Below are positions 16,221 to 35,589 of a DNA stretch of 35,920 nucleotides, in pieces (within the stretch, counting starts at the first letter, position 1; the number at the start of each line of letters is the position of its first letter). This DNA comes from a virus (Duplodnaviria > Heunggongvirae > Uroviricota > Caudoviricetes). A program made the position numbers and the translations under genes. Location: IMG/VR virus record IMGVR_UViG_2529293138_000008, positions 1 through 35,920 of that record; one strand, given 5' to 3'. The notes under the pieces are model-generated. The model was not told the DNA's origin and made no database searches. It was given only the letters and a program-made list of their open reading frames with translations.

Positions 16221-16321
16221 CGACTGACCCCGTCAGCGGGCGGCGTGCGCGGTGTTCCGGTTTGACTCCGTGGCCGTTTACACCACGCACCCACCGCCCG
16301 ATTTTTTCAGGAGTGAACCCC

Positions 16322-17016: not shown

Positions 17017-17018
17017 CA

Positions 17019-18740: not shown

Positions 18741-19368
18741 GGCATTCACCCGTGTGGATGAAACCTTTGAGGCTATCCGCGACGGCCTGAATCAGCAGGC
18801 CATCAATAACATCGCCAGAAAGCTGGCACAGGATTTACGTCGCGCCCAGCAGGCACGCATCCGGTCACAGAAAGCGCCGGACGGGAGCGCATGGACACCA
18901 CGCAGACGCCGCGTAACCCGGATACAGGAGCGCATTCGCTTTATCTGGAATAACGAAGCACGCACGCTGAAAAACTGGCATCACGACACGGGGAAATACG
19001 GGCGAACCATTACCGGGTGGGATGAGGATAAAAACAATATCCGCACGTTTTACCGGGATGACATCGACCGTTTTCTGGAAATACGCACCCGGCGCATCAA
19101 CCAGGCCAGCACAAAGCGCGTCCCCATGTTCGTAAAACTGCGCACCGCCCGCTACCTGAAAGCCCGTGCAGATGCTTCTGGTGTGACGGTGGGTTACAGC
19201 GGCGTGGCCGCACGTATTGCCCGCGTTCATCAGTTCGGTGAGCGCGATCAGGTTGCGCCGGGCATTTTCACCGATTACCCGGTACGCGAGCTGCTGGGTA
19301 TCAGCCAGGCAGATGAGCGCCTGATTTATAACACGGTGCTGGGCCGGATTGCGGAGGCTGTACGGTGA
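18733..19368 (+). CDS. S: Tail completion / virion morphogenesis protein (P2 gpS-like)
   Basis: ATG 18733 after a ggggtga SD, overlapping the R stop. HQFGE motif; position between R and V. Confidence 0.75.
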   Translation: MDKAFTRVDETFEAIRDGLNQQAINNIARKLAQDLRRAQQARIRSQKAPDGSAWTPRRRRVTRIQERIRFIWNNEARTLKNWHHDTGKYGRTITGWDEDKNNIRTFYRDDIDRFLEIRTRRINQASTKRVPMFVKLRTARYLKARADASGVTVGYSGVAARIARVHQFGERDQVAPGIFTDYPVRELLGISQADERLIYNTVLGRIAEAVR

Positions 19369-19946
19369 GCGCAGAACTCATGCGACTGCTGAGTAACATC
19401 ATCCGCACCGGGATCATCTCTGAAGTTGATGAGAAGTCCTGGCGCGTGCGCGTTCGCAGCGGCGAACTGGAAACAGGCTGGTTGCGCTGGAACACCACGC
19501 GCGCGGGGGCCTTCAATGTGTGGCTGCCGCCATCACCAGGCGAACAGGTGGTAATTGCCTGCATAGGCGGCAACCCGGAAACCGCCATGATAATTGGCAG
19601 CCTGTGGAGTGATGCCAGTCCGGCCCCCGGCAAAAGCCTGAAAGAAATCGTGGTCAGCGCGCCGGACGGCGCGGTGTTCCGCTACGACGCGGACGCAGGC
19701 GCACTGAGCGCCAGCGGCATGAAAACAGCCACCCTGCAGGCATCCGTCAGCGTGACACTGGATACGCCTGTCGTGGAATGCACAGACCTTCTGAGAACAG
19801 CGACGCTTGACGTCACAAAAGGGGGAACGATGAGCGGCAATATCACGCACAGCGGCGGCGATTTCACCTCAAACGGCATCACTGTGCATACGCATAAACA
19901 CGGTGGCGTTAAAGGGGGCAGCGATTCGACAGGAGGCCCACAGTGA
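19365..19946 (+). CDS. V: Baseplate assembly/spike protein (P2 gpV-like)
   Basis: GTG start with GGAGG SD 7 nt upstream, overlapping the S stop. 193 aa. Confidence 0.85.
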   Translation: MSAELMRLLSNIIRTGIISEVDEKSWRVRVRSGELETGWLRWNTTRAGAFNVWLPPSPGEQVVIACIGGNPETAMIIGSLWSDASPAPGKSLKEIVVSAPDGAVFRYDADAGALSASGMKTATLQASVSVTLDTPVVECTDLLRTATLDVTKGGTMSGNITHSGGDFTSNGITVHTHKHGGVKGGSDSTGGPQ

Positions 19947-20293
19947 CAACCCGCTACACAGGAATGAACCCGGACGGAACGGGAAACCTGAACGATATGG
20001 AGCACCTGAAACAGTCAGTCAGGGACATCCTGACCACCCCGCTGGCAAGCCGGGTTATGCGACGGGAATATGGCAGCCTTGTGCCTGATTTGATTGACGA
20101 ACCCATGAATAACACCACGCGTCTGCAATGCATGAGTGCTGCCGTGATTGCGCTGACACGATGGGAACCCCGCATTGCCCTGGACGCCATCGACGTTGTC
20201 TGGAAGGCAGGAGGCCGCGCCGGGGTGACGCTGTCGGGCACTGTCATGCAGACCATGCAGAATGTTGAATTAACCATCACGCTGAGGGAGTAA
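19943..20293 (+). CDS. W: Baseplate wedge protein (P2 gpW-like)
   Basis: GTG start with AGGAGG SD; 116 aa (P2 W is about 115 aa). Confidence 0.85.
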   Translation: MTTRYTGMNPDGTGNLNDMEHLKQSVRDILTTPLASRVMRREYGSLVPDLIDEPMNNTTRLQCMSAAVIALTRWEPRIALDAIDVVWKAGGRAGVTLSGTVMQTMQNVELTITLRE

Positions 20294-20296
20294 ATC

Positions 20297-21193
20297 ATGC
20301 CTGCCGTTGACCTTTCCCAGTTACCGGAACCCGCCATCATCGCGGAGCCTGATTTTGAGGCAATTCTGGCTGACACAAAGGCCATGATGATTGCGTCCTA
20401 TCCTGCCGAACAGCGTGAAGCCGTCTCCGCCGCGCTGGGGCTGGAATCGGAACCCCTGAACGTTATCGCCCAGACAACAGCGTTTCGTGAAATGCTGTTA
20501 CGCCAGCGGGTCAATGAGGGTGCACGCGCCTGCATGCTAAGCCACAGCGCCGGGACAGACCTGGACAACCTCGCGGGCAATATGAACACAAAGCGCCTGG
20601 TTATCACTCCGGCAACGGATACCACCGACGCAGTGATGGAAAGTGACACCTCGCTGAGACTACGGGCGCAACGGGCATATGACGGTCTGAGTGTTGCTGG
20701 CCCGTCAGGTGCATACGAGTATTTTGCACGCAGCGCCAGCGGTCTGGTACGCGATGCGCGGGCCATCAGCCCGTCTCCGGCCAACGTGACGGTTTCCATC
20801 CTGTCCACTGAGGGCGACGGCACAGCAACGGAGGCGTTGCTTAATACCGTTCGCGCCGTTCTGAATGCAGAGGATACCCGCCCGGTGGCCGACCGCCTGA
20901 CCGTACAGAGTGCCAGAATCGTGACATGGCGGCTGAATGCAAAACTGTACTTTTACCCCGGCCCGGAATCCGAACCTATTCTGGCCGCGGCGGAATCGTC
21001 GTTCAGGAAGTGGCTGTCTGAGCAGGGGCTTATCGGTCAGGACGTGGCGTTGTCAGCCATTGCTGCCGCACTGCATGTGCACGGTGTGCAACGCGTGGAG
21101 ATAATCGAACCCACACAGAATATGGCCATCAGCGACATACAGGCGGCGCGCTGTGAGTCATTCACCATCAGCGAAGGTGGGCGCAATGAGTAA
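20297..21193 (+). CDS. J: Baseplate protein (P2 gpJ-like)
   Basis: 298 aa (P2 J about 302 aa); synteny W-J-I-H. Confidence 0.85.
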   Translation: MPAVDLSQLPEPAIIAEPDFEAILADTKAMMIASYPAEQREAVSAALGLESEPLNVIAQTTAFREMLLRQRVNEGARACMLSHSAGTDLDNLAGNMNTKRLVITPATDTTDAVMESDTSLRLRAQRAYDGLSVAGPSGAYEYFARSASGLVRDARAISPSPANVTVSILSTEGDGTATEALLNTVRAVLNAEDTRPVADRLTVQSARIVTWRLNAKLYFYPGPESEPILAAAESSFRKWLSEQGLIGQDVALSAIAAALHVHGVQRVEIIEPTQNMAISDIQAARCESFTISEGGRNE

Positions 21194-21716
21194 TTCACTG
21201 TTACCGCCATCAGCCAGCAGTTTCATGCGTTGTGCCGAAGCCGTCGGAACACGCATTACAGGCATTCCGGTAGACCTCAACACACTGTGGTCACCAGATA
21301 CCTGCCCGGTGCATCTGCTGCCTTATCTCGCCTGGGCGTTTTCCGTTGACCGCTGGGATCGCAACTGGCCGGAAGAGACAAAGCGACAGGTTATTCGTGA
21401 TGCATGGCTGATACACCGACACAAAGGGACCATCAGCGCACTGCGCCGGGCCATTGAGCCGCTGGGGTACCTCATTCGCGTGTCTGAGTGGTGGGAGTTC
21501 GGCGGAGAACCGGGAACATTTACCGTTGAAGTCGGCACGCTGGACAGTGGCGTGACAGAGGAAATGTATCTGGAAATGGAGCGGTTGATTGCTGATGCCC
21601 GCCCGGTCAGCCGCCACATGACAGGGCTGAATATCATTCAGGAAATTCCGGGAGATATTTTCGCAGCGGCGGCAACTTATGACGGTGAAGTTATTACCAT
21701 TTATCCAGGCGATTAA
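21186..21716 (+). CDS. I: Baseplate/tail protein (P2 gpI-like)
   Basis: ORF track 21153..21716 trimmed to ATG 21186, overlapping the J stop. About 176 aa, as for P2 I. Confidence 0.8.
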
Positions 21717-21718
21717 GC

Positions 21719-24268
21719 ATGAGTACCACAACACGAAAATTTAAAACCGTTATCACCGATACGGGTGCAAAAAAATTAGCGCAGGCAGCCGCGTCAGATG
21801 GTAAGCCTGTCCGCCTGACTCATATGGCCGTAGGCGACGGTGGCGGCACGTTGCCCACACCAGACAGTAAGCAGACCCGTCTGGTGCATGAGGTGTGGCG
21901 ACACACTGTTAATCGCGTCATCCTGGACGCAACACATCAGAACCGCATTATTGCAGAGCTGGTTATTCCTCCAGAAACGGGCGGATTCTGGATCCGGGAA
22001 ATTGGTGTATTTGATGAGCACGGCGATTTAATCGCGGTGGGCAATACTGCCGAAAGTTACAAGCCAGCCGTTGCCGAAGGGTCCGGTCGTGCACAAACAT
22101 TTCGCACCATTCTGACCGTATCCAGCACTGCCGCCGTGGCGCTTACCGTGGATAACACCATGGTGATGGCCACAGTGGATTACGTGGATGACAAACTGAA
22201 AGAGCATGAACAGTCACGACGTCACCCGGACGCCTCGCTGACCGCAAAAGGCTTTGTTCAACTCAGTAGCGCCACTAACAGCGATTCTGAAACGCTGGCG
22301 GCAACGCCGAAAGCGGTTAAGGTCGCGTATGATCTTGCTAACGGAAAATATACAGCGCAGGATGCCACAACAGCGCGAAAAGGCCTTGTCCAGCTCAGTA
22401 GTGCCACCAACAGCGATTCTGAAACGCTGGCGGCAACGCCAAAGGCAGTAAAATCAGCCTATGACAATGCAGAGAAACGTCTGCAGAAAGACCAGAACGG
22501 TAGAGATATTCCAGATAAGGGCGCTTTCCTGAATAACATTAACGCGGTCAGTAAAACAGACTTTGCTGCTAAGCGCGGTATGCGTTATGTGCGGGTTAAC
22601 GCTCCTGCAGGTGCAACGTCTGGAAAATATTACCCTGTTGTTGTTATGCGCTCTGCTGGATCAGTAAGCGAGCTGGCATCAAGAGTAATTATTACTACGG
22701 CAACACGAACCGCAAACGATCCGATGAATAACTGCGAGTTTAATGGATTCGTTATGCCTGGCGGCTGGACTGACAGGGGGCGTTATGCCTATGGAATGTT
22801 CTGGCAATATCAAAACAATGAACGAGCCATTCACTCAATAATGATGAGTAATAAGGGCGATGATTTGCGCTCTGTGTTCTATGTTGATGGCGCTGCTTTC
22901 CCTGTTTTTGCGTTTATCGAAGATGGCCTGTCAATATCCGCACCGGGTGCTGATCTCGTTGTTAATGATACGACCTATAAGTTTGGGGCAATAAATCCGG
23001 CGACTGAATGTGTCGCGGCGGACGTTATCCTTGATTTCAAGAGTGGGCGTGGTTTTTACGAATCTCATTCGTTAATCGTTAACGATAACTTGTCGTGCAA
23101 AAAACTTTTTGCCACAGACGAAATTGTAGCGCGTGGTGGTAATCAGATTCGAATGATAGGTGGGGAGTATGGTGCATTATGGCGTAATGATGGCGCTAAA
23201 ACTTACCTGCTGCTTACCAATCAAGGTGATGTTTATGGTGGCTGGAATACATTAAGACCGTTTGCTATTGATAACGCAACCGGCGAACTGGTTATTGGAA
23301 CCAAACTGTCCGCAAGTCTGAACGGTAATGCATTAACAGCAACAAAGCTGCAAACGCCAAGACTGGTTTCTGGTGTTGAGTTTGATGGTTCCAAAGATAT
23401 TACTTTAACCGCCGCGCATGTGGCTGCTTTTGCCAGAAGGGCAACGGATACATATGCCGATGCGAATGGTGGCGTTCCCTGGAATGCCGAATCAGGCGCT
23501 TACAATGTCACCCGCTCTGGCGACAGCTATATTCTGGTTAACTTCTATACCGGAGTCGGAAGTTGCCGGACCTTGCAGATGAAGGCGCATTACAGAAATG
23601 GTGGTCTGTTCTACCGTTCTTCAAGAGACGGTTATGGTTTTGAGGAAAACTGGGCAGAAGTTTATACCTCGAAAAATCTTCCACCAGAAAGCTACCCAGT
23701 CGGCGCACCAATCCCGTGGCCATCAGATACCGTTCCGTCTGGTTATGCCCTGATGCAGGGGCAGACTTTTGACAAATCTGCTTACCCGAAACTTGCAGCC
23801 GCTTATCCGTCAGGCGTGATCCCTGATATGCGTGGCTGGACGATTAAGGGCAAACCTGCCAGTGGTCGGGCCGTATTGTCTCAGGAACAGGACGGCATTA
23901 AATCGCACACCCACAGCGCCAGCGCATCCAGTACGGATTTGGGTACGAAAACCACATCGTCGTTTGATTACGGTACTAAATCCACAAATAACACCGGAGC
24001 ACATACACATAACTTTGCTTACAACAATACTTCAGCATACGCAGATACTCCTGGTACTGGCGGAGGAATGCATGCAACTAACACCAGCAAGACAGCAAGT
24101 AATCGCGTATTAAGCGCAGGAGCTCATACTCATACAGTAGCAATAGGTGCGCATACACATACGCTCGCTATTGGTTCGCATACACACACCATTACCATTG
24201 CCGCTTATGGTAACGCGGAAAACACCGTTAAAAACATCGCATTTAACTATATTGTGAGGCTTGCATGA
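21719..24268 (+). CDS. H: Tail fiber protein (P2 gpH-like), with internal repeats and His-rich tip
   Basis: 849 aa. Duplicated 44-residue module containing [21 protein letters not shown] (DNA direct repeats around 22250-22322 and 22382-22454). C-terminal GAHTHT-type HxH repeats typical of fiber tips. Confidence 0.85.
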
Positions 24269-25155
24269 TTACGCTCATTCTTTCTGCACCAGTAACAGAA
24301 ATGGCTGAAGCATTTAAGCGAGTATTCGCAAATGCAGATAATGTGAATATTGTCGGAAAGCCATTTGAAACAATCAGAGAATTTGACTGCATGGTAAGTG
24401 CGGCAAATAGTTTCGGCCTGATGGATGGCGGCGTTGATGCCGCCATTACCACATTCTTCGGTACTCAGTTACAGGCCCGTGTTCAGAATCACATTCTTCG
24501 TGAATGTCTCGGCGAACAGCCTGTAGGTTCTGCATTTGTCATTGAAACGGGGCATAATCATCACCCCTGGTTGGTACATGCGCCAACAATGCGTGTTCCG
24601 TTGACAATTGACGGAACAGACGCTGTATATAACGCAACCTGGGCAGCTCTGCTTGCCATCTTTCAGCACAATAAAAACGCAACGACAGACATGAAAATAA
24701 AAACAGTGGTATTCCCTGCAATGGGGGCCGGATGTGGTCAGGTGCCGTTTGAAAGTGTTGCCCGGCAGATGAAGCAGGCATGGGATAACTTTAATAAAAA
24801 AACAGAATCAATTAACTGGGAATACGCACAATCCCGCCAGTCGGCAGTATTTGGCACATATGCATACTGTCCGGGTAATTCTGTTTGCCGTTATGCGGAT
24901 ACTAAATATATTGGATGCGGCGATTATCGGACGTATTGCTTACGGTCAGGGCAGGCATGTATTAATCCTGAACATCAGGTTGATGATGTGCTGGCTAATA
25001 ATCGCTCTCGCCCGGGTTCGCATGCACATCGAATTAATCCAGAAAATCCCGTAGGCCATCTCACCTCTGGTGAACATAGCCACGGAGGAGGCATCATTAT
25101 TGGTGCTCACCCCCATACGCTCAATAAACAATATTCTGTCTCTGGTATTAAGTAG
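24265..25155 (+). CDS. Macro-domain (ADP-ribose-binding/processing) protein with Cys/His-rich, fiber-tip-like C-terminus
   Basis: ATG overlaps the H stop (ATGA). N-terminal ~180 aa carries three macro-domain motifs: [30 protein letters not shown]...[32 protein letters not shown]-terminal ~110 aa has five Cys and three HxH motifs (SHAHR, EHSHGGG, AHPHTL) resembling the H tip. Confidence 0.6.
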
Positions 25156-25163
25156 AGGTGAAC

Positions 25164-25742
25164 ATGGATTTCAGAATGAGTGAACAACCACGGACCATAA
25201 AAATTTATAATCTGCTGGCGGGAACCAATGAATTTATTGGTGAAGGTGATGCATACATTCCACCTCATACAGGTCTGCCAGCAAACAGTACCGATATTGC
25301 GCCGCCAGATATTCCGGCAGGATTCGTAGCCGTTTTCAACAGTGATGAGGCATCGTGGCATCTCGTTGAAGACCATCGGGGAAAAACCGTCTATGACGTG
25401 GCTTCCGGCGACGCGTTATTTATTTCTGAACTCGGTCCGTTACCGGAAAATGTCACATTGCTGTCACCGGAGGGGGAGTATCAGAAGTGGAACGGCACAG
25501 CCTGGGTGAAGGATACGGAAGCAGAAAAAATGTTCCGGATACGGGGCGCTGAAGAAACCAAAAACAGCCTCATGCAGGTAGCCAGCGAGCATATTGCGCC
25601 ACTTCAGGATGCCGTAGATTTAGATATTGCGACGGAGGAAGAGGTATCGTTACTGGCTGCATGGAAGACATATCGGGTATTGTTGAATCGCGTTGATACA
25701 ACAGTGGCAGCGGATGTTGAGTGGCCAGTCGCACCACAATAA
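25164..25742 (+). CDS. G: Tail fiber assembly chaperone (P2 gpG/Tfa-like)
   Basis: ORF track 25158..25742; ATG 25164 follows an agagg SD. Position directly after the fiber genes; acidic C-terminus typical of Tfa proteins. Confidence 0.7.
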
Positions 25743-25748
25743 AAAGGA

Positions 25749-25778
25749 AAAGCCATCGATAGAAATATCGATGGCTTT
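25749..25778. terminator. Bidirectional terminator hairpin between convergent tfa and acetyltransferase genes
   Basis: Perfect 13-bp stem aaagccatcgata / tatcgatggcttt with GAAA loop; U-rich on the minus-strand side. Confidence 0.55.
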
Positions 25779-25785
25779 ATGTACT

Positions 25786-26358
25786 CTATTTATATAATAC
25801 AACACCGCTCTTTTTAGTTATATATGTGCAGTTCGATGGTATATCTTTATTTATAAAAGACATTGCACCTATTTTTACATTATCCCCAATTTTACGTGAT
25901 AATCCAATGATGCAACAATTAGCTCCGATATCAACGTTATTACCAATTTTTATTCTTGCACCAGGCATGTCACCATCTATCTGTCCAATGGTAGTATTCT
26001 GTCGTAACACCAGATTTTCACCAGCATCAACAGCAAAATGAACAACAATTCCAGCATGATGGGGAATTGTTAACCCTTTTCCAATATTTGCACCCAATCC
26101 AATTTCGCAACCAAACTTGTTAATTATTTTACTGTTTAACTTCTTGGCTGCTTTCTTATGTAATTCATTACCATTAATATACATTTCGTTAGCCAACCGC
26201 CACCAGAAAAGGAAATTCCGGTTACGCTGCTTTTTCTCTCTTAAAAGCCTCCAGATATCCACACGTTTCCGCCGAATTACTTCATATTTCCAGAAGTTTT
26301 TTAAATCAGTAGAGTTTCCAAATAAAACAAAGTGAATTGCCATTAAGTAAGACAGCAC
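25786..26358 (-). CDS. Hexapeptide-repeat (left-handed beta-helix) O-acetyltransferase, CysE/WcaB/NeuO-like (moron)
   Basis: 190 aa with repeated [LIV]-G-x-x-x-x hexads (IGLGANIGKGLTIPHHAGIVV, IKIGNNVDIGANCCIIG, IGDNVKIGAMSFI). Strongly AT-rich relative to flanking genes. Confidence 0.7.
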   Translation of the reverse strand: MLSYLMAIHFVLFGNSTDLKNFWKYEVIRRKRVDIWRLLREKKQRNRNFLFWWRLANEMYINGNELHKKAAKKLNSKIINKFGCEIGLGANIGKGLTIPHHAGIVVHFAVDAGENLVLRQNTTIGQIDGDMPGARIKIGNNVDIGANCCIIGLSRKIGDNVKIGAMSFINKDIPSNCTYITKKSGVVLYK

Positions 26359-26514
26359 GATAATCTCCTTAATTATTATTTCAGACCATACATGTTATAA
26401 GGTTAAGAGATTATAAAATCCTGTTATTTGTTATTCAAAAACAATTTTCTAAGAAGGACATACAACAGCAAGTCGTCAGTCACCTTCATCAGGACATTGG
26501 CGACATACGTTAAA

Positions 26515-27009
26515 TCAGAGCAGCCCCTTAACTGAGCTGGCCGCGCTATTAAGGGATGATGTCACCTTATCTTTGAAGCCGGACAACATATCGCTGAACG
26601 ATGAGGATTGCAGACGCTCCCGCAAATCCTCATCACAGCGTTCAAGGGTCAGTGAAAATTCTATCTTTTTCGCCTTACCGTAGCGATCAAACTCGGAACG
26701 GGTCGTATTCGTTCCGGTCAGGACATACATGCCGTAAATCTGCCCGACACCATCAATCAAAGGCCAGGGTCGTCCTGTATACGCCTGCGTGGTCAGCAGC
26801 GACAGCGACACTTCGCCACCTGTAATTTCAGGATAAAGCACACCAGAAAGAACGATGCGATCATCACCTGCACCGATATACTGCCAGCTTGCTGAACGGT
26901 TAACGCGTTCATTTTTCACATGCCGCCAGCTTTTGTTTTGCTGTAACTGCTGATGCGGCAATGTGCGCAGCTCAAAAACAAACATGCCGTAGATCATCAT
27001 CATGGTCAT
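26515..27009 (-). CDS. U: Tail protein (P2 gpU-like)
   Basis: 164 aa. MMMIYGMFVFELRTLPHQQLQ..SWRH, GVLYPEITGG, PLIDGVGQIYGMYV, IEFSLTLER parallel recalled P2 gpU. Confidence 0.85.
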   Translation of the reverse strand: MTMMMIYGMFVFELRTLPHQQLQQNKSWRHVKNERVNRSASWQYIGAGDDRIVLSGVLYPEITGGEVSLSLLTTQAYTGRPWPLIDGVGQIYGMYVLTGTNTTRSEFDRYGKAKKIEFSLTLERCDEDLRERLQSSSFSDMLSGFKDKVTSSLNSAASSVKGLL

Positions 27010-27015
27010 GACTCC

Positions 27016-29859
27016 TCAATCTTTATCGTAAAAACTGCCACGCCCGGCACGGGCTCGCCGTTCCATTTCTGCCCTGACCATTTCACCGACCAGTTTCGCC
27101 AGTTCGCGGGGATTCTGCGTAACAACGTTATGCAGATGAACATGAATTTCACCGCCAAATCCGGAGACAGCAGGCTCCCGGTTACGGGAAGTTGCAGGAA
27201 CTGATGCCACTGGCGATCGTATGGCCTCCGCCACCGGGCGGGAGCTGGCCGCAACAACAGGGACCAGCGCCGGAGGCAGCGGAGCCGGGACCACGGGGGT
27301 GATATTAATTGCGGGGACAGGCTTACTGACCTGCGCAATCTTCCGCTCCTGCCACTCCCCACGAACAGCAAGTGCGCGAGGCAGGTTCTTAAAGACAATA
27401 TCGCCGGGGCCAATGCGTTTTTTCGTCTCATCAACCAGCTTACCTGTGTTATCAGCAATTTTGCTGAGTCTGCGTAGCGTCCCGGTATTGCTGTCTGTGA
27501 GTGGTTTGTTGTCTTTGGGTTTATCACCTCCGGTGCCATTGCCATTTTCCACAGGCTTCGGCAGATTGATTTTCGCCAGGTCCCCCTGAAGCAAGGCAAC
27601 CTTGTCCTGAAGAATGGCCGCACGCTGTGCGTCTTCGATTTTCTTTCTCGCCCTTTCCGCTTCATCCGGAAGAACACCGAGTTTTTCAAGTATCCATGCC
27701 AGCGTATCCAGCAGCATTTTTGCAGGTGTCAGAACAAGTTGTAACGCACCGCCAAGAACGTTACCGAATACCTTGCCAGCACTGGTACATTTATCCAGCG
27801 TTTCCTTGCTGGACTCCATCGGTGACAGCAGCGATTTAAACCAGTTAAACACCTGGCTGATCCCACTCCCGATTGCGTCAAAAACAGGACCAAACCGTTC
27901 AAAGGTTTCGCGCAACGGGGTCAGCCTTTCCATAATCCCGCTGAACACCCCGGCAAAAAATGCCCTGATGGGATCCCAGTATTTCCAGATAAGAACGGCA
28001 GCTCCGGCAAGCGCAGCCACGATAAGACCAACCGGACTGAACAGCGCCCCGATAGCACCTCCCAGTAAAGAAACGGAACCCGTCACCATTCCCCACAGCG
28101 CAGGCAACACTCTGACGACATTCATTGACCGGGTAAGAATGTCAAAACCAAGACGCAGTTTTGCCAGCGGGCCAGCAAGCACACCAATAGCCAGCGACAA
28201 CGAGCCAACCGTTGCAGTCATTGCCAGCAGTGCACCGCCTGCAATCAGTAGCTGGCGCGTCAGTGCGGGATGGGCCTGCGCCAGCGCCGTCACCTTTGAT
28301 ACCACACGCGTGAGCCACTGCGTGACAGAACGCAGCGGACCGTCAATCAGATCTGCAATGCGGATGCGCAACCCTTCCCATGCACTGCTGAGTGATTTCA
28401 GATCGCCGTCAAGGTTGTTGGCCATAACCTTTGCCGTGCGTTCAGCCTCACCGCGCGCGCCTTCAAGTTCTTTTCTCAGTTTGGGTAAGGAGCCGTCACC
28501 TGCCGCATCAACGAGGGCCATAAATGATGTGAAAGCCTCTTCTCCGGCAATGTCCTTAAAGAACGATACCCGGTCAACTTCCCCGTATTTGCGGGTAGCT
28601 TTATAAAGGTCAGCCAGCACATCCTCCATCGGGCGCATTTTGCCCCCGGCATCCGAGACAGACACGCCAAGCTCTTTCAGCGCCTCTGCTGCCGCCTTTG
28701 GCGGTGATGCCAGACGAGCCAGGCTGGCACGCATTGCCGTACCAGCATCACTCCCCCTGATACCCATATTCGCCAGCACGCCCGCCATCGCTGCGGCCTG
28801 CTCCAGCGATATTCCCAGCTTACCCGCCACCGGACCTGCATATTTCATGGTTTCACCCAGTGCGCGAAGGTCAGTGTTGGTACGGGTAAACGCTGCGGTG
28901 AGTGTGTCGCCGACCCGGTCCATCTGGTCAGCAGAAAGGCCGAACTGCGTCAGGATATTTGAGCCAATATCCGCCGTCTCGCCGAGATCCATACCGCCAG
29001 CCGTTGCCATGCTCAGCACGCCGGGAAGCGCAGCCTGAATGGCCTGCGGAGTAAAACCAGCCATTGCAAGAAATGCCTGTCCACTGGCGGCATCGCCTGC
29101 GGTGAACTGCGTTTCAGAGCCAAGTTTTAACGCCTGCTCACGCAGCGCCTTAAACTGCGGGCTGTTCTGGTCAATTCGCGTCAGCGCCTGAACGCGGGAC
29201 ATCTCTTTCCCGAACCCGATCGCGGGCTGCAAAAAACGCCCGGCAGCATAGCCGCCCGCCGCTGCCGCACCAGTTGCCAGCGCACCACCTGTTTTCAGTT
29301 TTCCAGCGGTTTCCTGCGCGCGCGAATACCGCTCACGCGCCCGCGTTACACGCGCAAGCGCCTGCCGTTCGCGTTCAAGCTGGTTGTTGTACTGTTCGGT
29401 GCGTCTGATGGCCTGCTGGATGGTGTTATCGCTGCCTGTCAGGGAAATGCCGTGGCGTTTCAGTTCTCCGCCAAGCTCCCGCATTTTCTGAATTTCCCGT
29501 GTGCGCGATTCATTCAGGCGTTCAAGCCGGGTGCTTAACTGCTGCATCAGCTTTTGTTGTTTTTCGCTGAGCACTGTACCCGTGCGTTGTAACTGATTAA
29601 GGGCGTTAAGCTGGCGTCGTGCTTTCACGATACCCGCATCCGCTTTACTGACAGCGTCGCGGGCGCGCTCAAATGAACGCGCCTGACGCTCGAGATTTTT
29701 GATCGCCCCCTGCGTTCGCTGGATGGAGTCACCAAACTGCCCCATCAGGCGGCGTGCGTTTTCGGCAGGCCGGGTCAGCCTGTCAACGGCGCTGAAAGCG
29801 ACCCGGATATCAAGAGTCTTCATTGTCTGCATTCCCGCTGCGAAGTGCCGCCCGCTCAC
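27016..29859 (-). CDS. T: Tail tape measure protein (P2 gpT-like)
   Basis: 947-aa ORF with coiled-coil N-terminus, Gly/Ala-rich hydrophobic middle and long helical C-terminus. GTG at 29859 or ATG at 29832/29823 are all possible starts. The 330-aa plus-strand ORF at 27614..28606 is a shadow. Confidence 0.85.
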   Translation of the reverse strand: MSGRHFAAGMQTMKTLDIRVAFSAVDRLTRPAENARRLMGQFGDSIQRTQGAIKNLERQARSFERARDAVSKADAGIVKARRQLNALNQLQRTGTVLSEKQQKLMQQLSTRLERLNESRTREIQKMRELGGELKRHGISLTGSDNTIQQAIRRTEQYNNQLERERQALARVTRARERYSRAQETAGKLKTGGALATGAAAAGGYAAGRFLQPAIGFGKEMSRVQALTRIDQNSPQFKALREQALKLGSETQFTAGDAASGQAFLAMAGFTPQAIQAALPGVLSMATAGGMDLGETADIGSNILTQFGLSADQMDRVGDTLTAAFTRTNTDLRALGETMKYAGPVAGKLGISLEQAAAMAGVLANMGIRGSDAGTAMRASLARLASPPKAAAEALKELGVSVSDAGGKMRPMEDVLADLYKATRKYGEVDRVSFFKDIAGEEAFTSFMALVDAAGDGSLPKLRKELEGARGEAERTAKVMANNLDGDLKSLSSAWEGLRIRIADLIDGPLRSVTQWLTRVVSKVTALAQAHPALTRQLLIAGGALLAMTATVGSLSLAIGVLAGPLAKLRLGFDILTRSMNVVRVLPALWGMVTGSVSLLGGAIGALFSPVGLIVAALAGAAVLIWKYWDPIRAFFAGVFSGIMERLTPLRETFERFGPVFDAIGSGISQVFNWFKSLLSPMESSKETLDKCTSAGKVFGNVLGGALQLVLTPAKMLLDTLAWILEKLGVLPDEAERARKKIEDAQRAAILQDKVALLQGDLAKINLPKPVENGNGTGGDKPKDNKPLTDSNTGTLRRLSKIADNTGKLVDETKKRIGPGDIVFKNLPRALAVRGEWQERKIAQVSKPVPAINITPVVPAPLPPALVPVVAASSRPVAEAIRSPVASVPATSRNREPAVSGFGGEIHVHLHNVVTQNPRELAKLVGEMVRAEMERRARAGRGSFYDKD

Positions 29860-30339
29860 GCCAGCTAACCACTTCGCCGGGCGTCATCATGAAGATTTCG
29901 GCGGGCGACCAGTTAAAAATAACGGCAATATCTGCCACAAAGTCTTCTATGTGCTCAAAGCACACAACCGTGATCAGGCTTCCGTCGCCTGTTCGTTCTT
30001 CCCGCCAGAGTCCGCACCGCTCAAAAAATTTACGGCAACCACACATAACTGAATAAAGTCACGGGATGCCATTTTTTTGATCGTCACTTCATCCAGTCGC
30101 GGTGATGTCACGCGTGACAGCAGCGTAAACATGGATTCCGCTTTCAGATTCAGCACATCAGACAGTGACAAATCTCGCAGAGATCCAGCCTGCTCAATAG
30201 CTCCGGTGATCTCCACATACGTGATTTTTTCGCCGCCTCGCTCAATTGGTTGGGTAAGTTTTACGCCACGCTCACTGGTTTCTTTCACAGTGTCAGTAAC
30301 TACCGTATTTTCGGTATCGATGTTTTTCGTCTCTTTCAT
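29810..30339 (-). CDS. gpE+E' -1 frameshift fusion product (predicted)
   Basis: Frame arithmetic: E codons start at coordinates congruent to 0 mod 3; the 29810..30046 ORF is in the frame reached by a -1 slip. The A7 tract AAA-AAA-A (30078..30072 on the coding strand) lies in E frame as TIKKMA. E' overlaps the T start, as in P2 and lambda G/GT. Confidence 0.5.
29974..30339 (-). CDS. E: Tail assembly chaperone (P2 gpE-like)
   Basis: AGGAG SD upstream. Core region GEKITYVEITGAIEQAGSLRDLSLSDV resembles recalled gpE. Contains an A7 run at 30072-30078. Confidence 0.75.
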   Translation of the reverse strand: MKETKNIDTENTVVTDTVKETSERGVKLTQPIERGGEKITYVEITGAIEQAGSLRDLSLSDVLNLKAESMFTLLSRVTSPRLDEVTIKKMASRDFIQLCVVAVNFLSGADSGGKNEQATEA

Positions 30340-30393
30340 CAGGAAACTCCTTTCAGTCAGAGGCGACGCACTGCGCCGCCTGCATATTACTTA

Positions 30394-30906
30394 TCAGCCA
30401 AGCCCAAGCGCGGAACGGATGCGATCGGGCACAATGTCCTTGCCGTCCTTCCGGTAAATGAAGTTCAGCAGGTCAATCTCCCACAACGGGCGATCGTTAA
30501 CACTCAGCTTGTAGTAGGTGTTTTTAATGGCGTAAGTGTGTGATGTGGCTTCGCCCTGTTTGGCTTCCCCCATATCAATTTCCGTCACACGTCCGCGCAT
30601 TTCGACTTCATACAGGTCGCTTTCATCATCGGTGTAGTATTCACCCGCAAAACGCAGTAGCGTGCCGTCAATCGTGCCGCCATACTTCAGGAACAGCTCA
30701 CGAACTGCGCCCCCCATGACAAAGCTCGCATCAAGCGCGGAGTCGTCCAGACCGAGATCAATACTTACCGCACCCATCATGCCGCCCCCCCGGTAGCTGT
30801 CGGTTTTGCGCGTCAGCTTGGGCAGAGTGACGGACGTCACCTTACCTACTTCGTTTTCACCATCCACAAACAGCGTAAAAAAGCGAAGATGTTTTGGCAC
30901 AGCCAT
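30394..30906 (-). CDS. FII: Tail tube protein (P2 gpFII-like)
   Basis: 170 aa (P2 FII about 172 aa), directly downstream of the sheath gene on the same strand. Confidence 0.9.
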   Translation of the reverse strand: MAVPKHLRFFTLFVDGENEVGKVTSVTLPKLTRKTDSYRGGGMMGAVSIDLGLDDSALDASFVMGGAVRELFLKYGGTIDGTLLRFAGEYYTDDESDLYEVEMRGRVTEIDMGEAKQGEATSHTYAIKNTYYKLSVNDRPLWEIDLLNFIYRKDGKDIVPDRIRSALGLG

Positions 30907-32090
30907 CAGGCACCTCCCAGCACCGCAAATGCGGGTTCAAAGTATTCATCAGTAAACGTCTGGTAAAGCTCCATGTCTTCCAGTGGCGGAACGGGCGTAT
31001 ATTTGTAGCGAATACGCACACGCCCCTGACGTAAATCCGTGGTGCTGTTATCCACCACGTCATACCAGCACTCCGCGCCAATCAGTTTCCCGGCAGTAAC
31101 CAGTGAATCCAGTTTTGCCCTGATGGCACTGATAACATCTTTCACGTTCGCAGGCGTCAGTGGACTGTCGATGGTTTCAAACTGCGCTTCCGCAATTGAA
31201 TCAGCCAGCACCTGTGCGGTTCGGGTATACACCTCAAAGATGTAGGCATTCGTTTCCGGTGTGCGGTTGCCCCAGAAGCGGAACCCGTTGCGACGAATAA
31301 TGGTCGTGATTTCTTTGTTGTTGAGGCTGTTGGCATCACTGTCTTCGGCCTGCAACGACCAGAACACATGCCTCGACATCCCCAGCACATTTTTAACCGG
31401 AACGTTGGACAGTGATTTGTGCCAGCCCTGCTCATGGTCAATGTATGCACGAAGACCGCACGCATAGGCAGGCGCGGGGAACGTTTCGTTTTTGCCACTT
31501 TTGGGGTTGTAGGCGATGAAGTCCGGCCATAAGAGCATCACCTCACGTTCGTTGAATTTCTGGCGGTAGGTAATTGCCTCTGCCATCGTGTTACAGCCAT
31601 TACATGAGGCATACACAAACGCGCGCAGTTTACCTGCAATCACGCACAGGGATTTTGTTACAGCCTCCGTGTCCAGCTCCGGCGCGGCCAGAATACGCGG
31701 ACGGTATCCGATGCTTTCATCCTGCTCTGCAACAAGCAGCGCATACATCCCCGTATAGCTGCCGTCATCCTCAGAACCACCGATAACCAGTTGATCCTGC
31801 GTCTTACCGTCTTCTTCTTTGTGTTCAGCCACGCGAACGACGATCACCTTTGTGCTCACCTGGTCTGCGATGGCTTTAAGCGCACGATAAAGCGTCCCCG
31901 TTGTCCCGCATTTTCCCAGCACGTCATTGACGCGGGTCAGCAGTGTGGGCTTGTTCAGCGGGAACAGCTTCGCGTCCGCATCATCCGCCGTTGCCACGAT
32001 ACCGATAACGCTGGAATCAACATCGTTAATCGCTGTTACCAGGTCGGTATTTTCCGTAACACGGGCACCATGAAAACGAGTTTCACTCAT
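30906..32090 (-). CDS. FI: Tail sheath protein (P2 gpFI-like)
   Basis: 394 aa (P2 FI about 396 aa); ATG at 32090 with a GGGG-type SD. Confidence 0.9.
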   Translation of the reverse strand: MSETRFHGARVTENTDLVTAINDVDSSVIGIVATADDADAKLFPLNKPTLLTRVNDVLGKCGTTGTLYRALKAIADQVSTKVIVVRVAEHKEEDGKTQDQLVIGGSEDDGSYTGMYALLVAEQDESIGYRPRILAAPELDTEAVTKSLCVIAGKLRAFVYASCNGCNTMAEAITYRQKFNEREVMLLWPDFIAYNPKSGKNETFPAPAYACGLRAYIDHEQGWHKSLSNVPVKNVLGMSRHVFWSLQAEDSDANSLNNKEITTIIRRNGFRFWGNRTPETNAYIFEVYTRTAQVLADSIAEAQFETIDSPLTPANVKDVISAIRAKLDSLVTAGKLIGAECWYDVVDNSTTDLRQGRVRIRYKYTPVPPLEDMELYQTFTDEYFEPAFAVLGGA

Positions 32091-32247
32091 AGCTTCAGCC
32101 CCTTGTATCCGTTAAATGATTCGGCAACAATCATCACCCACCACGCGCGTAATCTCACCCCTGCGCCGTTCTCCCGCCACGGCGACAACAAAAAGCAGTA
32201 ACCCCCTCCGCACGCACATGCGACCATGCCGCACAGGGAGGGAACAG

Positions 32248-33357
32248 ATGACCGACACCACCATGCAATTGCTCAGTCAGGGCACAGACCCCGTAAAAAT
32301 GCCGGATTTTGATATTCTCGCGGAGGGTAAAACGCTGTCCGGCGTGGCAGAGCGCCTGATGAGCCTGTCGCTGACCGACAACCGGGGATTTGAGGCAGAC
32401 CAGCTCACCATCACGCTGGATGATGCGGATGGTCAGTTGCAGCTACCGCCACGGGGCGCGCGCCTGACGGTTCTCATTGGCTGGAAAGGCGAACCGCTGA
32501 CAGAAAAAGGGTCTTACATTGTTGATGAAATCGCACACGAAGGACCGCCGGACAGGCTGACTGTTTCAGCCAGAAGCGCAGATTTCCGGGATGAATTTAA
32601 CGTTAAACGTGAGGTGTCCTGGCATGATGTGACCGTTGAGCGTGTGGTATCCGCCATCGCTCATCGGTACGGTCTGAAACCGCAAATCAGCGAAATGCTG
32701 ATGGATATCGAAATCGACCACGCCGACCAGACCGAAGAAAGTGACATGTCCTTCCTTACGCGCATGGCGGAAATGCTGGGCGCAATCACTACGGTAAAAA
32801 GCGGTAATCTGTTATTCATCATGCCCGGTGGTGGCGTGAACGCACAGGGCCAGCCGTTGCCATCGTTCGCCATCACGCGCAGCAGCGGCGATCGCCATCA
32901 GTTCCGCATTGCTGACCGCGAGGCGTATACGGGGGTACGCGCTTACTGGCTTGATCTTAATTACGGGAAAAAGAAAAAAGTCAGCGTGAAACGCCGCAAA
33001 CCGCCAAAACCGAAAAAAGAGAAAAGCAGCAGCCGTGAAGGTGATTATATGGAAGGCGCGGAAGGCAATGTGTTTGTGTTACGCAAGACTTATCAGAACG
33101 AGCAGGCAGCAAGACGCGCAGCGGCGGCAAAGTGGCAACAACTACAACGCGGAGCCGCATCATTCTCCATCACGCTGGCACGTGGACGAGCAGAACTCTA
33201 CCCCGAAATGCATGGCACGGTAACAGGATTTAAAAGCGAGATTGATAATCAGGACTGGATTATTGCAAAAGCCGAGCACACCATTGATAACAGCGGCTTT
33301 ACCACGCAGCTTGAGCTTGAGGCAAAAATCCCGGAATGGATAGCAGAAACAGAGTGA
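32248..33357 (+). CDS. D: Tail protein D (P2 gpD-like)
   Basis: ORF track 32116..33357 trimmed to ATG 32248 after a gggaggg SD. LSGVAERLMSLSLTDNRGFEAD, ARSADFR, SWHD, lysine-rich linker and REGDYMEGAEGNVF align with recalled P2 gpD. Confidence 0.85.
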   Translation: MTDTTMQLLSQGTDPVKMPDFDILAEGKTLSGVAERLMSLSLTDNRGFEADQLTITLDDADGQLQLPPRGARLTVLIGWKGEPLTEKGSYIVDEIAHEGPPDRLTVSARSADFRDEFNVKREVSWHDVTVERVVSAIAHRYGLKPQISEMLMDIEIDHADQTEESDMSFLTRMAEMLGAITTVKSGNLLFIMPGGGVNAQGQPLPSFAITRSSGDRHQFRIADREAYTGVRAYWLDLNYGKKKKVSVKRRKPPKPKKEKSSSREGDYMEGAEGNVFVLRKTYQNEQAARRAAAAKWQQLQRGAASFSITLARGRAELYPEMHGTVTGFKSEIDNQDWIIAKAEHTIDNSGFTTQLELEAKIPEWIAETE

Positions 33358-33582
33358 GCAACTTAAATGTATTAACTCAGAACGGATCAACACACTCACA
33401 ACATAGAGTCAATATAGCTGCTCGCTTTGTTCCAGCAAGGATGCCTATTTCTAAGGAAAAACAGAGCAGAAACATATGGTGTTTTCCTACCTGACATCAG
33501 GGGTGGTAAGAATCATGCTTTGATAACCAATTGATAACTATTATTATATTAATCTAACACCATTGACATAGTTGAGGTTTGA

Positions 33583-35085
33583 ATGAACAAAAAGCTGTAT
33601 TTATTCCCAGACTCAAACATTTTTCTACAATGCAAGGACTTGACGCAGGTAAATTTTTCCGAGATTACTGCTTGTGATGAAGTATGTATCATTATTACAA
33701 GGCCCATTCAGCAAGAGATTGACCGCCAGAAAGGGCAAGGTAATTCCCGCCTATCCAAAAAAGCAAGGAAGGCTGCTAGCCTATTTAATCAAGTAGTTGA
33801 TTCAACTGACATGACTCTTGTTATTCGTGAACGCTCGCCGCGAGTTTTTCTTACCATGGATCTAAGCCTGAAACCATGTGAACAGTTATCTGAACAATTG
33901 GATTATCAGGAGGCCGACGATCGTTTTGTTGGTATTGCGGCAGGGTATTGCGCTGACGATCCAGATTCGGAGGTGGCAATCATTACCAATGATAGCGGTC
34001 CACGTTTTTCAGCAATAAAACATAATATAATCTGCTATAAAGTGCCTTCTTCATGGTTGCTTCCTGCTGAGCCAGATGAAAAGGATAAACAAATTAAATT
34101 GCTGGAAGCTAAGCTGAAGCAATTCACTCAGTCTATGCCCGATTTCAGCATTAAAGTAGCCGATGACGAGCAATTAAATATTGTACTTCCTTATTATACA
34201 GCTTTATCTGTATATGAAGTTGATAATTTGCTTTGTCAACTAACGGATGCATTCCCATTGGTTACAAACTTTGACAATGAACAAACTACCCCACAATCAC
34301 TAGAAAAAATCATCAAGTCATTTAGTCAACAGGAGTATTTCCCTGTATCAGCAGATGATATTTCTCTTTATAAAGAAAAACATTATCCACTTTGGAAAAA
34401 GCAGTGTGAAGAAATACTGAAAAACTGTCATACTCATATTAATCCGAAGGCAATAAAATACCCGCTGTCGTTTTTATTACAAAACACAGGTTATACTATC
34501 GCTGAACGTGCTGTGGTAACATTTACAGCAAAAGGAGATTTTCGTCTGTGTGGATTTAATTGGGAGATAATGGAAGAGCTGACTGAAAGCAAAAGGATTG
34601 ACCTACCTTCAGCCCCTACCGCCCCCAAAGGAAAATGGCGTAGTGTATGTGGCGTAACAGAAAGAATGCCTTACGCTTGGGGAGCTTTGGAAACACCGCT
34701 ATCCAGTATAATTTCAAAAGAAATTGGTCCTTTGTTATCTCTTACTCCAACAGAAAGGGATAAAAACGATTTTTATTATAAAGAAAAGAGAAATGAGCCA
34801 GTTCAAGTTGTATCGCTGGAATGCGAAGAGTGGCGTCATCAAGTCAAAGAAGAAATATTCCCGTTGTTCGTATATACAGCCAACAAACCAAAGAAAGTGA
34901 ATGGTGCAATTGAGGTGAGAGTTGATGCAAATAACCTTACCAATCCGGTCATTAAAACATTTAAATTAAAAATAACTATAGAAGAACATAGTGCATTTTC
35001 AACCATAACAGAAATGGTGCAGACATACATTCAAGAGCAGAAGAAAAGACAGAAAAGTTCTATTAGCGCACAAATCAAAACATGA
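33583..35085 (+). CDS. Stand-alone 500-aa protein with PIN-like N-terminal nuclease fold and uncharacterised C-terminal domain (cargo; candidate defence gene)
   Basis: AT-rich gene with its own sigma70-like promoter region (TTGATA ... TATATT around 33520-33560), gagg SD and downstream hairpin. N-terminal acidic residues in PIN-like spacing: LYLFPDSNIF (D), QQEID (E/D), QEADDRFVGIAAG (D), AIITNDSGP (D). C-terminal ~330 aa has no motif I recognise. Confidence 0.6.
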   Translation: MNKKLYLFPDSNIFLQCKDLTQVNFSEITACDEVCIIITRPIQQEIDRQKGQGNSRLSKKARKAASLFNQVVDSTDMTLVIRERSPRVFLTMDLSLKPCEQLSEQLDYQEADDRFVGIAAGYCADDPDSEVAIITNDSGPRFSAIKHNIICYKVPSSWLLPAEPDEKDKQIKLLEAKLKQFTQSMPDFSIKVADDEQLNIVLPYYTALSVYEVDNLLCQLTDAFPLVTNFDNEQTTPQSLEKIIKSFSQQEYFPVSADDISLYKEKHYPLWKKQCEEILKNCHTHINPKAIKYPLSFLLQNTGYTIAERAVVTFTAKGDFRLCGFNWEIMEELTESKRIDLPSAPTAPKGKWRSVCGVTERMPYAWGALETPLSSIISKEIGPLLSLTPTERDKNDFYYKEKRNEPVQVVSLECEEWRHQVKEEIFPLFVYTANKPKKVNGAIEVRVDANNLTNPVIKTFKLKITIEEHSAFSTITEMVQTYIQEQKKRQKSSISAQIKT

Positions 35086-35328: not shown

Positions 35329-35589
35329 ATGTTCCGTTGTCCGCTTTGTGGCGCATCTGCCCGCATCCGTACCAGTCGTCCGGAAAATGATTCAAACACC
35401 GTGCGGCAAAAGTATTACCAGTGTAACAATCTAGAATGCGGCGTATGCTTCTCAACACTGGAAGCTTTTCATAAATTCACATCGAAACACGCCTCCGGCG
35501 TTCACTCTTCAGAAGGTATCCCGTGGCATGAGCTGCCAGCTTCACACAGGGGAAACAATCAGATGAGTTTGCCTTTGCCTCAAAATTAA
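35329..35589 (+). CDS. ogr: Ogr/Delta-family zinc-finger late-gene transcription activator
   Basis: MFRCPLCGASARIRTSR ... YYQCNNLECGVCFSTLE matches the P2 Ogr Cys4 pattern (MFHCPLCQHAAHARTSR ... YHQCQNVNCSATF, from memory). AAGGGAGG SD upstream. Confidence 0.85.
   Translation: MFRCPLCGASARIRTSRPENDSNTVRQKYYQCNNLECGVCFSTLEAFHKFTSKHASGVHSSEGIPWHELPASHRGNNQMSLPLPQN

Follow-up and report, generated by a model that had tools for sequence, protein, structure and literature searches.

Why should a P2-like phage carry most of its tail operon backwards, and how would the one gene left behind, D, stay under late control? In phage P2 the late operon F is transcribed from PF in the order FI, FII, E, E', T, U and D, with D as its last gene (operon list, PMC3931495). 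A preliminary description of the window analysed here, a 35,920-nucleotide viral stretch (IMG/VR record IMGVR_UViG_2529293138_000008), had placed FI through U on the minus strand and D, divergently, on the plus strand, and had offered two readings: a large inversion that required rewiring of late transcription, or a mis-assembly. Comparison with relatives establishes that the flipped tail block is real and old and is the normal order of a large P2-like group in enteric bacteria. To account for it, we favor as quite probable a scenario in which an ancestral flip was fixed in the lineage, with one Ogr site coming to be shared by two divergent late promoters.

Layout of the inverted block and its distribution

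The window represents a P88-like phage or prophage of Xuanwuvirus, in the P2 family (Peduoviridae). Searches with PHROG and Pfam profiles, and tblastn against relatives, recovered the P2-type structural set (Q P O N M L ... V W J I H, FI FII E T U D and ogr). Xuanwuvirus records match the window at 95-98% nucleotide identity. Against P88, 26509-33368 forms one collinear piece of 97.8% identity, and 81% of the region 25000-33500 is matched at that level; the first 25 kb (1-25000) matches P88 and other Xuanwuvirus at ~95.5% identity over 70-77%, the unmatched parts being accessory modules.

As the preliminary description had it, U, T, E/E', FII and FI (26515-32090) are all encoded on the minus strand. 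The inverted block opens with FI, the tail sheath (30906-32090; phrog_23, E = 1.6e-127; 99.5% amino-acid identity to P88), followed by FII, the tail tube (30394-30906; phrog_55; major tail tube protein in the annotation of relatives), and the tail chaperone genes E and E' (29810-30339; phrog_103). E itself spans 29974-30339 and E' ends at 29810, with a slippery TTTTTTG at 30022-30028 for the E' frameshift extension; a GpE family protein is annotated downstream of E in P88 and E. coli. The tape measure gene T (phrog_28; P88 annotation) extends over 27016-29859 as its longest ORF, annotated homologues beginning ~36 nt further in, and the tail gene U (26515-27009; PF06995 Phage_P2_GpU, E = 1.5e-38; 98.8% amino-acid identity to P88) comes last. 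On the plus strand lie D, the baseplate hub (32248-33357; PF05954; phrog_52; 99.5% amino-acid identity to P88_4B11), and ogr, which encodes an Ogr/Delta-type zinc-finger late activator (35329-35589; PF04606, E = 5e-14; 98.8% amino-acid identity to the P88 homologue). D keeps its canonical orientation and is now apart from U. The gap between FI and D is exactly 157 bp (32091-32247), again as first described; a longer D ORF from 32116 finds no support, D homology beginning at 32248, after a GGGAGGG ribosome-binding site.

The adjoining minus-strand acetyltransferase gene (25786-26358) had been counted in the block, whose size was accordingly put at ~6.5 kb. This part of the description has to be revised: P88 similarity starts at 26509, and the acetyltransferase is a separate, later module, the ancestral inverted unit comprising U to FI with the promoter, ~5.7 kb (26509-32247). 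The P2 order invoked for comparison, in which FI through D share a strand with V through G, was confirmed on a P2 record. The window and the P2 operon F share the same seven products, an activator of the Ogr-type family and, allowing for one mismatch to the consensus in the window, probably the same kind of upstream dyad. They differ in that P2 has all seven genes on the V-through-G strand with D overlapping U, whereas in the window FI-U is flipped and D is a separate unit, and the amino-acid identities between the two are only 44-48%.

The notion of an event unusual to this genome did not survive comparison with close relatives, which have the same order throughout: it is the norm of a whole Peduoviridae sub-lineage, and the standard layout of P88-like and related phages. 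P88 and other Xuanwuvirus share both the order V W J I H ... U T E' E FII FI (minus), D ogr (plus) and the FI/D gap, base for base. The 48 phage records that reach at least 63% identity in the D protein cover Xuanwuvirus, Novemvirus, Reginaelenavirus, Reipivirus, Senquatrovirus and Serratia KSP20; FI and D stand head-to-head in every one of them, on opposite strands and separated by 157-193 bp. Among them, SEN5, 3LV2017/Kp4871-3, Kp4848-1/ST16-OXA48phi5.4, phiT5282H and KSP20 have the same arrangement. Records with D at most 53% identical (500465-1, ENT90, ST437-OXA245phi4.1 and P2) show the canonical order. The head-to-head arrangement also holds in 43/43 informative prophage loci from ~25 Enterobacterales genera, and the canonical orientation was found in none of the 91 clade genomes (48 phage records and 43 prophage loci). 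The right (FI/D) junction falls within one collinear 6.9-kb megablast piece in 11 Xuanwuvirus records (94-98% identity; annotated maps identical), and the left junction runs collinearly through 494 complete E. coli genomes.

Q, P, O, M, U, FII, FI and D are closer within the group than to P2 in all four genomes compared; for N, R, V, J, I and T this pattern is absent in some of the four. As the head and tail structural genes are thus mostly closer within the group than to P2, the group is a genome lineage. The literature we searched yielded no paper mentioning the inversion or the FI/D promoter layout: papers on P88, SEN4/5, KSP20-related phages and global P2-like viruses make no mention of inversion, synteny or orientation, and one on Burkholderia P2-like phages describes the canonical order. 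The flipped block is a false alarm, and gene-order checks based on P2 only can be expected to flag many genomes that are sound. The inversion, 5.7 kb in length, broke up the classical F operon but has stayed fixed across at least five ICTV genera and ~25 host genera.

The predicted activator box between FI and D

No clean Ogr-type box had been recognized by eye in the FI-D gap. It is correct that the exact TGT-N12-ACA, the consensus described in PMC3931495, is absent from the gap; over the window there are five exact matches, against 9.8 expected by chance. However, the gap holds a box with one mismatch, TCTCCCGCCACGGCGACA (TCT-N12-ACA; 32170-32187), which was overlooked because its left half-site carries a G-to-C change. 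The exact-pattern search was uninformative until the left half-site was relaxed. The box is centred at 32178.5, which puts the ATG of FI 88.5 nt away and that of D 69.5 nt away. Three sister genera (3LV2017, SEN5 and KSP20) have the exact TGT-N12-ACA at the orthologous site, and in each of six genera the gap contains a single T[GC]T-N12-ACA box, located 81.5-88.5 nt away from the start of FI. All 43 prophage loci retain the orthologous box (39 in the strict form, 4 as CCT-N12-ACA), the spacer being free to vary.

A matrix built from the sites of other genera only, without Xuanwuvirus, ranks a box between P and O first in the 35.9-kb window (21 bits) and the FI/D box second (19-20 bits), the next match reaching at most 9.4 bits; these two are the only strong boxes in the window. 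P2 and 500465-1 score poorly with the same matrix, too low to place the canonical F promoter or the breakpoints. Two perfect TGT-N12-ACA matches at 9481 and 19883, which share TGTGCATACG, are absent among the best matrix matches listed (the 15th scoring 4.5 bits) and were treated as chance; the one at 19883 is also too close to the next start codon. The ogr product is presumed to be the reader of the FI/D box, with a putative binding strength made uncertain by the degeneracy of the left half-site (TGT, TCT or CCT).

Predicted back-to-back promoters and their comparator

When the sequences of 23 non-redundant relatives are anchored on the box centre, ungapped, each arm shows a conserved -10-like hexamer at +44 to +49, to which the D arm adds a TG two bases upstream. 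On the sheath side, the predicted -10 of the leftward promoter PF is GATGAT (32130-32135, minus; 44-49 nt from the box centre), where the relatives show G-A-W-T-A-T at the same offset (A45 in 21/23, A48 in 22/23, T49 in 21/23), placing the predicted PF start near 32121-32123 (minus). On the other side, the D promoter has a predicted extended -10, TG-n-GACCAT (32219-32227, plus; hexamer likewise 44-49 nt from the centre), conserved at T41 (19/23), G42 (20/23), A45 (22/23), A48 (16/23) and T49 (20/23), with a start predicted near 32233-32235 (plus). Both hexamers are weak matches to TATAAT, and a promoter scan of 32091-32247 found no sigma-70-type -35/-10 promoter. From the conserved hexamer positions, the box centre is predicted to lie at ~-55.5 from each of the two predicted starts. 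In P2 late promoters the activator dyad lies at about -55.

The second strong box, TCTGACTGTTTTCTTACA (13378-13395), lies between P and O and offers an internal comparator. The P/O gap has the same mirror layout as the FI/D gap: a single T[GC]T-N12-ACAAC box flanked by -10-like hexamers, each ~44-50 nt away from the box centre (in P/O, TAATCT toward P and CATCAT toward O). The pairs differ in that FI/D would drive tail genes and P/O head genes, and in where the GC-rich tract lies with respect to the A-rich flank of the box, the two gaps having it on opposite sides; because of this last difference, the FI/D gap is no mere duplicate of the P/O gap. In phage Smp131, PP' and PO' have been proposed to share one site (PMC3931495).

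On the basis of this layout, we infer that one Ogr site would be bound at the box and serve two divergent late promoters, with both PF and the D promoter firing from it. Specifically, the F promoter together with the FI-FII-E/E'-T-U segment would have flipped in an ancestor shared by a large branch of Peduoviridae that infects Enterobacterales, with the orientation of D and ogr unchanged, and the F-promoter Ogr site would thereby have come to lie immediately upstream of D; the inverted order is now fixed, and is thus neither a mis-assembly nor a switchable segment. As the T[G/C]T-N12-ACA box is two-fold symmetric, a single bound activator, ~55.5 nt upstream of each predicted start, could drive both directions, the leftward PF transcribing FI through U and the rightward promoter D, a back-to-back design that would be shared by P and O in this phage. 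D thus probably remains under late control via an activator site common to the sheath promoter. The preliminary description had suggested that late transcription had to be rewired. While it must indeed differ from that of P2, the rewiring needed was probably small, since the box that came with FI sits at the right distance for D. A symmetric activator site serving both directions likely explains the persistence of the inversion; if so, this would be a natural case of an operon being split and rewired at almost no cost. It makes a modest point for phage biology: the FI/D case offers a simple, testable example of operon structure changing without loss of co-regulation.

An alternative that accepts the order as the lineage norm holds that the box serves the sheath promoter only, and that D uses an independent promoter, either the extended -10 alone or one dependent on a factor recognizing CGCGCGCG. 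A TG-n-hexamer, such as that conserved on the D arm, can function without a -35 element or an activator; moreover, conservation on the D side includes the CGCGCGCG tract at about +31 to +39, and the left half-site of the box is degenerate. We nevertheless regard this as unlikely, though not negligibly so: the D- and FI-side hexamers are equidistant from the box centre in 23 diverged sequences, the one-box, two-hexamer layout recurs in the P/O region of these genomes, and D encodes a structural baseplate protein that, as established for P2, is required when the products of the other tail genes are. The CGCGCGCG tract, which on the D side separates the box from the -10, also occurs on the P side of the P/O region; the shared-box model does not account for it, and another factor could act there.

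A broader form of the shared-box model concerns the late programme as a whole. Here, the Ogr dyad, mirror-symmetric at ~-55.5, would co-activate the sheath operon and D, and Xuanwuvirus would run its late programme from two sites only (P/O and FI/D), having lost the P2 V promoter and making one ~12 kb transcript from O to the fibre assembly gene. We would give this fuller version an even chance. No match above 9.4 bits that could represent a third box, for a V-type promoter, was found in the window. The S and V genes overlap; the gap at 18136-18272 holds lysC in an annotated relative. SEN5 has a TGT-N12-ACA upstream of V.

Origin of the inversion and its left flank

Rather than flipping in place, the block might have been replaced: an ancestor could have recombined with another phage and thereby gained a foreign FI-to-U module in the reverse orientation. 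The Peduoviridae are mosaic in this region, the slot between the fibre genes and U holding varied cargo (an invertase, an acetyltransferase or a DUF262 protein), and breakpoint scars are absent. However, the identity pattern of FI, FII, U and D across the clade matches that of the head genes Q, P, O and M, so that the block co-evolved with the genome instead of being brought from elsewhere, which makes such a replacement improbable.

Still less credible is an inversion that is recent or can switch back, as an invertase of the Gin/Cin/Hin type like the one beside U in P88 might produce; both orientations would then exist in populations. Like the invertible segments of Mu (G), P1 (C) and the P88 tail fibre switch, the inverted unit is a multi-kb segment of tail genes next to the position of an invertase in relatives: P88, P88_4B11 and 6 of the 43 prophage loci have an invertase gene beside the 3' end of U, at the left breakpoint. 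Unlike those segments, its orientation is fixed (91/91 genomes, with the canonical orientation in 0/48 phage records and 0/43 loci of the clade), and the window has neither flanking crossover repeats nor an invertase: tblastn with the P88 invertase gave no match better than E = 4.8. A search of the two ends of the block revealed no inverted repeats pairing 25743-26514 with 32091-32247 that could represent crossover sites or relics of recombination. Further, the invertase keeps the H/G orientation in both the canonical 500465-1 and P88; the breakpoint is therefore downstream of the invertase gene and not at its crossover site. Finally, the mis-assembly initially considered, with the block misoriented when the contig was built, has its sole basis in the departure from P2 order and can be set aside with near certainty, both junctions recurring in independent phage isolates, closed E. 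coli chromosomes and prophages of ~25 genera, with no long inverted repeats at the junctions to mislead an assembler.

On the left flank, the fibre genes and U of P88 are separated by an invertible fibre segment and a DNA invertase (plus strand, at the position of the acetyltransferase), whereas the corresponding interval of the window encodes a macro-domain protein, a lambda-like tfa and the acetyltransferase; the window further differs from P88 in a 500-aa PIN-domain gene between D and ogr. PADLOC returned nothing significant on the accessory genes. The acetyltransferase is a hexapeptide-repeat moron (phrog_2154; weak Hexapep match) with homologues annotated as serine O-acetyltransferase in E. 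coli genomes, and the promoter scan placed a sigma-70-like promoter upstream of it at 26438-26410 (minus). The tail fibre assembly gene tfa (25158-25742, plus; phrog_105, E = 1e-96; tail fiber assembly protein in the E. coli O157:H7 LSU61 annotation) is the final gene of the rightward late operon and gives the context of the left junction. Between the convergent tfa and acetyltransferase genes, the terminator scan detected a hairpin with a 13-bp stem (25749-25778), likely a two-way terminator at the meeting point of rightward and leftward late transcription.

Gene order in the window and among its relatives

The window is organised like a P2-family phage, with the integrase (1011-2138) and Q and P (10516-13313) on the minus strand, and the replication gene (4699-7566) and the run from O through the tail fibre assembly gene, tfa (13468-25742), on the plus strand. 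These are followed on the minus strand by U (26515-27009), the tape measure gene T (27016-29859), the chaperone genes E/E' (29810-30339), the tube gene FII (30394-30906) and the sheath gene FI (30906-32090), and on the plus strand by the baseplate hub gene D (32248-33357) and the late activator gene ogr (35329-35589). An ATG farther upstream, which begins the longest ORF, was rejected as the start of D, as homology begins at 32248, preceded by a GGGAGGG ribosome-binding site. In the P2 record FI, FII, E, T, U and D share a strand with V through G, and D abuts U; the preliminary description was thus correct that the FI-through-U block lies on the strand opposite to that expected from P2, with D divergent and 157 bp (32091-32247) separating the starts of FI and D.

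Mis-assembly, which that description had raised as one explanation, is contradicted on both sides of the block. In a megablast search with 25000-33500, 11 phage records match 26509 to ~33368 at 94-98% identity as a single collinear piece, which spans the entire inverted block, the divergent gap and D. The best match is Escherichia phage P88 (97.8% identity); the annotated maps of P88 and P88_4B11 have the same strands as the window, and their 157-bp FI/D gap is identical to it base for base. Over 70-77% of its length, the first 25 kb is ~95.5% identical to P88 and Chuche and, together with the collinear piece, marks the window, by sequence, as a P88-like phage of the genus Xuanwuvirus. The left junction is not covered by the P88 match because the accessory genes of P88 differ there; its genes (a macro-domain protein, tfa, an acetyltransferase, U and T) are collinear in 494 complete E. 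coli genomes, and the complete arrangement is present in the annotated chromosome of E. coli O157:H7 LSU61. Judged by these alignments, the inverted order is neither an artefact nor a private event.

Nor is it an anomaly: comparison with close relatives shows it to be the norm in this sub-lineage, an outcome that the preliminary description itself had named as refuting the point. A phage collection was searched with the D and FI proteins, and strand and position were compared record by record. Wherever D is at least 63% identical, FI and D lie on opposite strands, 157-193 bp apart (all 48 phage records: Xuanwuvirus, Novemvirus phiT5282H, Reginaelenavirus 3LV2017, Reipivirus ST16-OXA48phi5.4, Senquatrovirus SEN4/SEN5, Serratia phage KSP20 and further Klebsiella records), as direct inspection confirmed for SEN5, Kp4871-3, Kp4848-1, phiT5282H, 3LV2017, ST16-OXA48phi5.4 and KSP20. 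Where D is at most 53% identical, the order is canonical (500465-1, ENT90, ST437-OXA245phi4.1 and P2). A bacterial scan with one genome per species recovered 47 loci from ~25 genera of Enterobacterales, and FI and D are head-to-head in all 43 prophage loci that hold both genes. The head proteins Q, P, O and M and the tail proteins U, FII, FI and D are consistently closer within the inverted group than to P2, while for N, R, V, J, I and T this is not so in every genome. For the most part, then, the group is a lineage of genomes and not a mobile tail cassette; its gene order is almost certainly a fixed lineage trait, and one old inversion, later fixed, is the simplest reading. The order is itself already known, since it has been in public records at least since the KSP20 entry, where genes annotated as gpD-like and gpFI-like lie opposite each other, and occurs in several ICTV genera.

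Two assemblies labelled as Firmicutes, Vagococcus sp. WN89Y (with a full enterobacterial prophage arrangement) and the Planococcaceae bacterium UBA3378 MAG, encode a D with 96-99% amino acid identity to that of the window, most likely through contamination or mis-binning. In two Xuanwuvirus records, NC_049344.1 (520873) and NC_049341.1 (503458), IS100 of the IS21 family interrupts the sheath and tape measure region; hence, some of the records deposited as "phages" in this group are probably defective prophages.

A proposed shared activator box between FI and D

The F operon of P2 ends with D, and the late promoters carry the consensus TGT-N12-ACA recognised by the Ogr activator (PMC3931495). 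An exact search bore out the earlier impression that the window's FI/D gap has no clean copy, and a box with one mismatch is present: alignment of six genera revealed a single conserved island, which is a perfect TGT-N12-ACA in 3LV2017, SEN5 and KSP20 and TCT-N12-ACA in phiT5282H, ST16-OXA48phi5.4 and the window (TCTCCCGCCACGGCGACA, 32170-32187). Each gap has exactly one box, 81.5-88.5 nt from the FI start. Among the 43 prophage loci, T[GC]T-N12-ACA is kept in 39 and CCT-N12-ACA occurs in four, with the 12-nt spacer varying freely, as expected of a protein site with two half-sites. A position matrix built solely from non-Xuanwuvirus sites, scanned across both strands of the 35.9-kb window, ranked first a box between the divergent P and O (13378-13395; 21 bits) and second the FI/D box (19-20 bits), all other sites scoring at most 9.4 bits. 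The looser pattern TST-N12-ACAAC has five matches against 2.2 expected, and it is only the matrix and cross-genus conservation that single out these two boxes. Perfect TGT-N12-ACA sites at 9481-9500, in an AT-rich accessory region before Q, and at 19883-19900, inside V, share their first ten bases (TGTGCATACG); both score low with the matrix and were taken as chance.

When 23 non-redundant gaps (<85% identical to one another) were anchored on the box centre without alignment gaps, a -10-like hexamer emerged equidistant from it on both arms. The FI arm has G-A-W-T-A-T at +44 to +49 (A45 21/23, A48 22/23, T49 21/23), and the D arm T41-G42-n-A-A-n-C-A-T (T41 19/23, G42 20/23, A45 22/23, T49 20/23), thereby additionally carrying an extended -10 TG. 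Conservation is highest at hexamer positions 2 and 6, the most important ones for sigma-70. In the window the predicted elements are GATGAT on the FI side (32135 to 32130, minus strand) and TG-n-GACCAT on the D side (32219-32227, plus strand). With the hexamers placed at -12 to -7, the box centre would lie at ~-55.5 of both promoters, which fits its position at P2 late promoters, with predicted starts near 32121-32123 (minus) and 32233-32235 (plus). The promoter scan detected no ordinary -35/-10 promoter in the FI/D gap, which accords with dependence on an activator. The layout of one box and two hexamers recurs in the P/O gap of these genomes, and a shared site has been proposed for divergent P/O-type promoters in Smp131 (PMC3931495).

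We therefore favor, with moderate confidence, a promoter pair in which one box serves both the FI and the D side. The inversion would have brought the F-promoter box beside D and, given the symmetry of that box, a weak -10 at the mirror position would have sufficed for a D promoter. In the chief rival reading, D is driven by its own extended -10 or by another factor. We found no mention of the inversion or of this promoter layout in searchable papers; the shared-box model adds something small and testable but does not amount to a system of a new kind. Between box and hexamer, an alternating CGCGCGCG tract is also conserved across genera, at +31 to +39 from the box centre (~32209-32217 on the D side; ~13346-13354 on the P side of the P/O gap), and is degenerate on the window's D side (CGCACGCA).

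The window, including 13468-25742, yielded no third strong box; V overlaps S at 19365-19368, with no intergenic space in front of it, and in an annotated relative lysC occupies the gap preceding R. Xuanwuvirus thus may lack the V promoter of P2, of which there is no obvious counterpart, and O through tfa may form one transcription unit of ~12 kb. By contrast, a TGT-N12-ACA is still present before V in SEN5 (L011 9263-9280).

Extent of the inverted unit and accessory genes

An inversion relative to P2 stands, but not at the ~6.5 kb first suggested: the ancestral unit runs from U to FI and takes in the promoter region, ~5.7 kb in all, and the acetyltransferase gene (25786-26358) is a later insertion outside it. 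This gene has its own sigma-70-like promoter in the promoter scan, similarity to P88 starts only at 26509, and the slot beside U holds an invertase, DUF262 genes or nothing in other members. A search for repeats or recombinase sites at the junctions, as had been proposed, found in the window neither inverted repeats linking the two junctions nor an invertase homologue.

The module of tfa (25158-25742, plus) and acetyltransferase (25786-26358, minus) is 91-93% identical to one in the unrelated, larger E. coli phages JL22 and vB_EcoM-Ro157c2YLVW, and its tfa part is ~89% identical to lambda-family tfa; the module has thus been exchanged across phage families, and it takes the place of the invertible fibre segment and invertase of P88. 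An Rfam match to IS009 (RF02111; 25507-25705, plus; 171.6 bits) lies wholly within the tfa coding sequence, and the family probably represents a prophage tfa fragment rather than marking an independent RNA gene here. Between H and tfa, in the tail fibre module, lies a 296-aa macro-domain protein (24265-25155, plus; PF01661, E = 1.5e-18), also annotated in SEN5 and E. coli O157:H7 prophages, with a weak PADLOC match to DarG (E = 0.005); the adjoining acetyltransferase moron suggests a tie to receptor or O-antigen modification. The slot between D and ogr varies among relatives: a YecA-family gene fills it in O157:H7 LSU61, and it is empty in P88_4B11. In the window it is occupied by a low-GC island (~37-44% GC) with a 500-aa ORF (33583-35085, plus); this ORF has a PIN_4 domain at its N-terminus (E = 4e-8), has no match in PHROG or PADLOC, and may be cargo with a role in defence or as a toxin.
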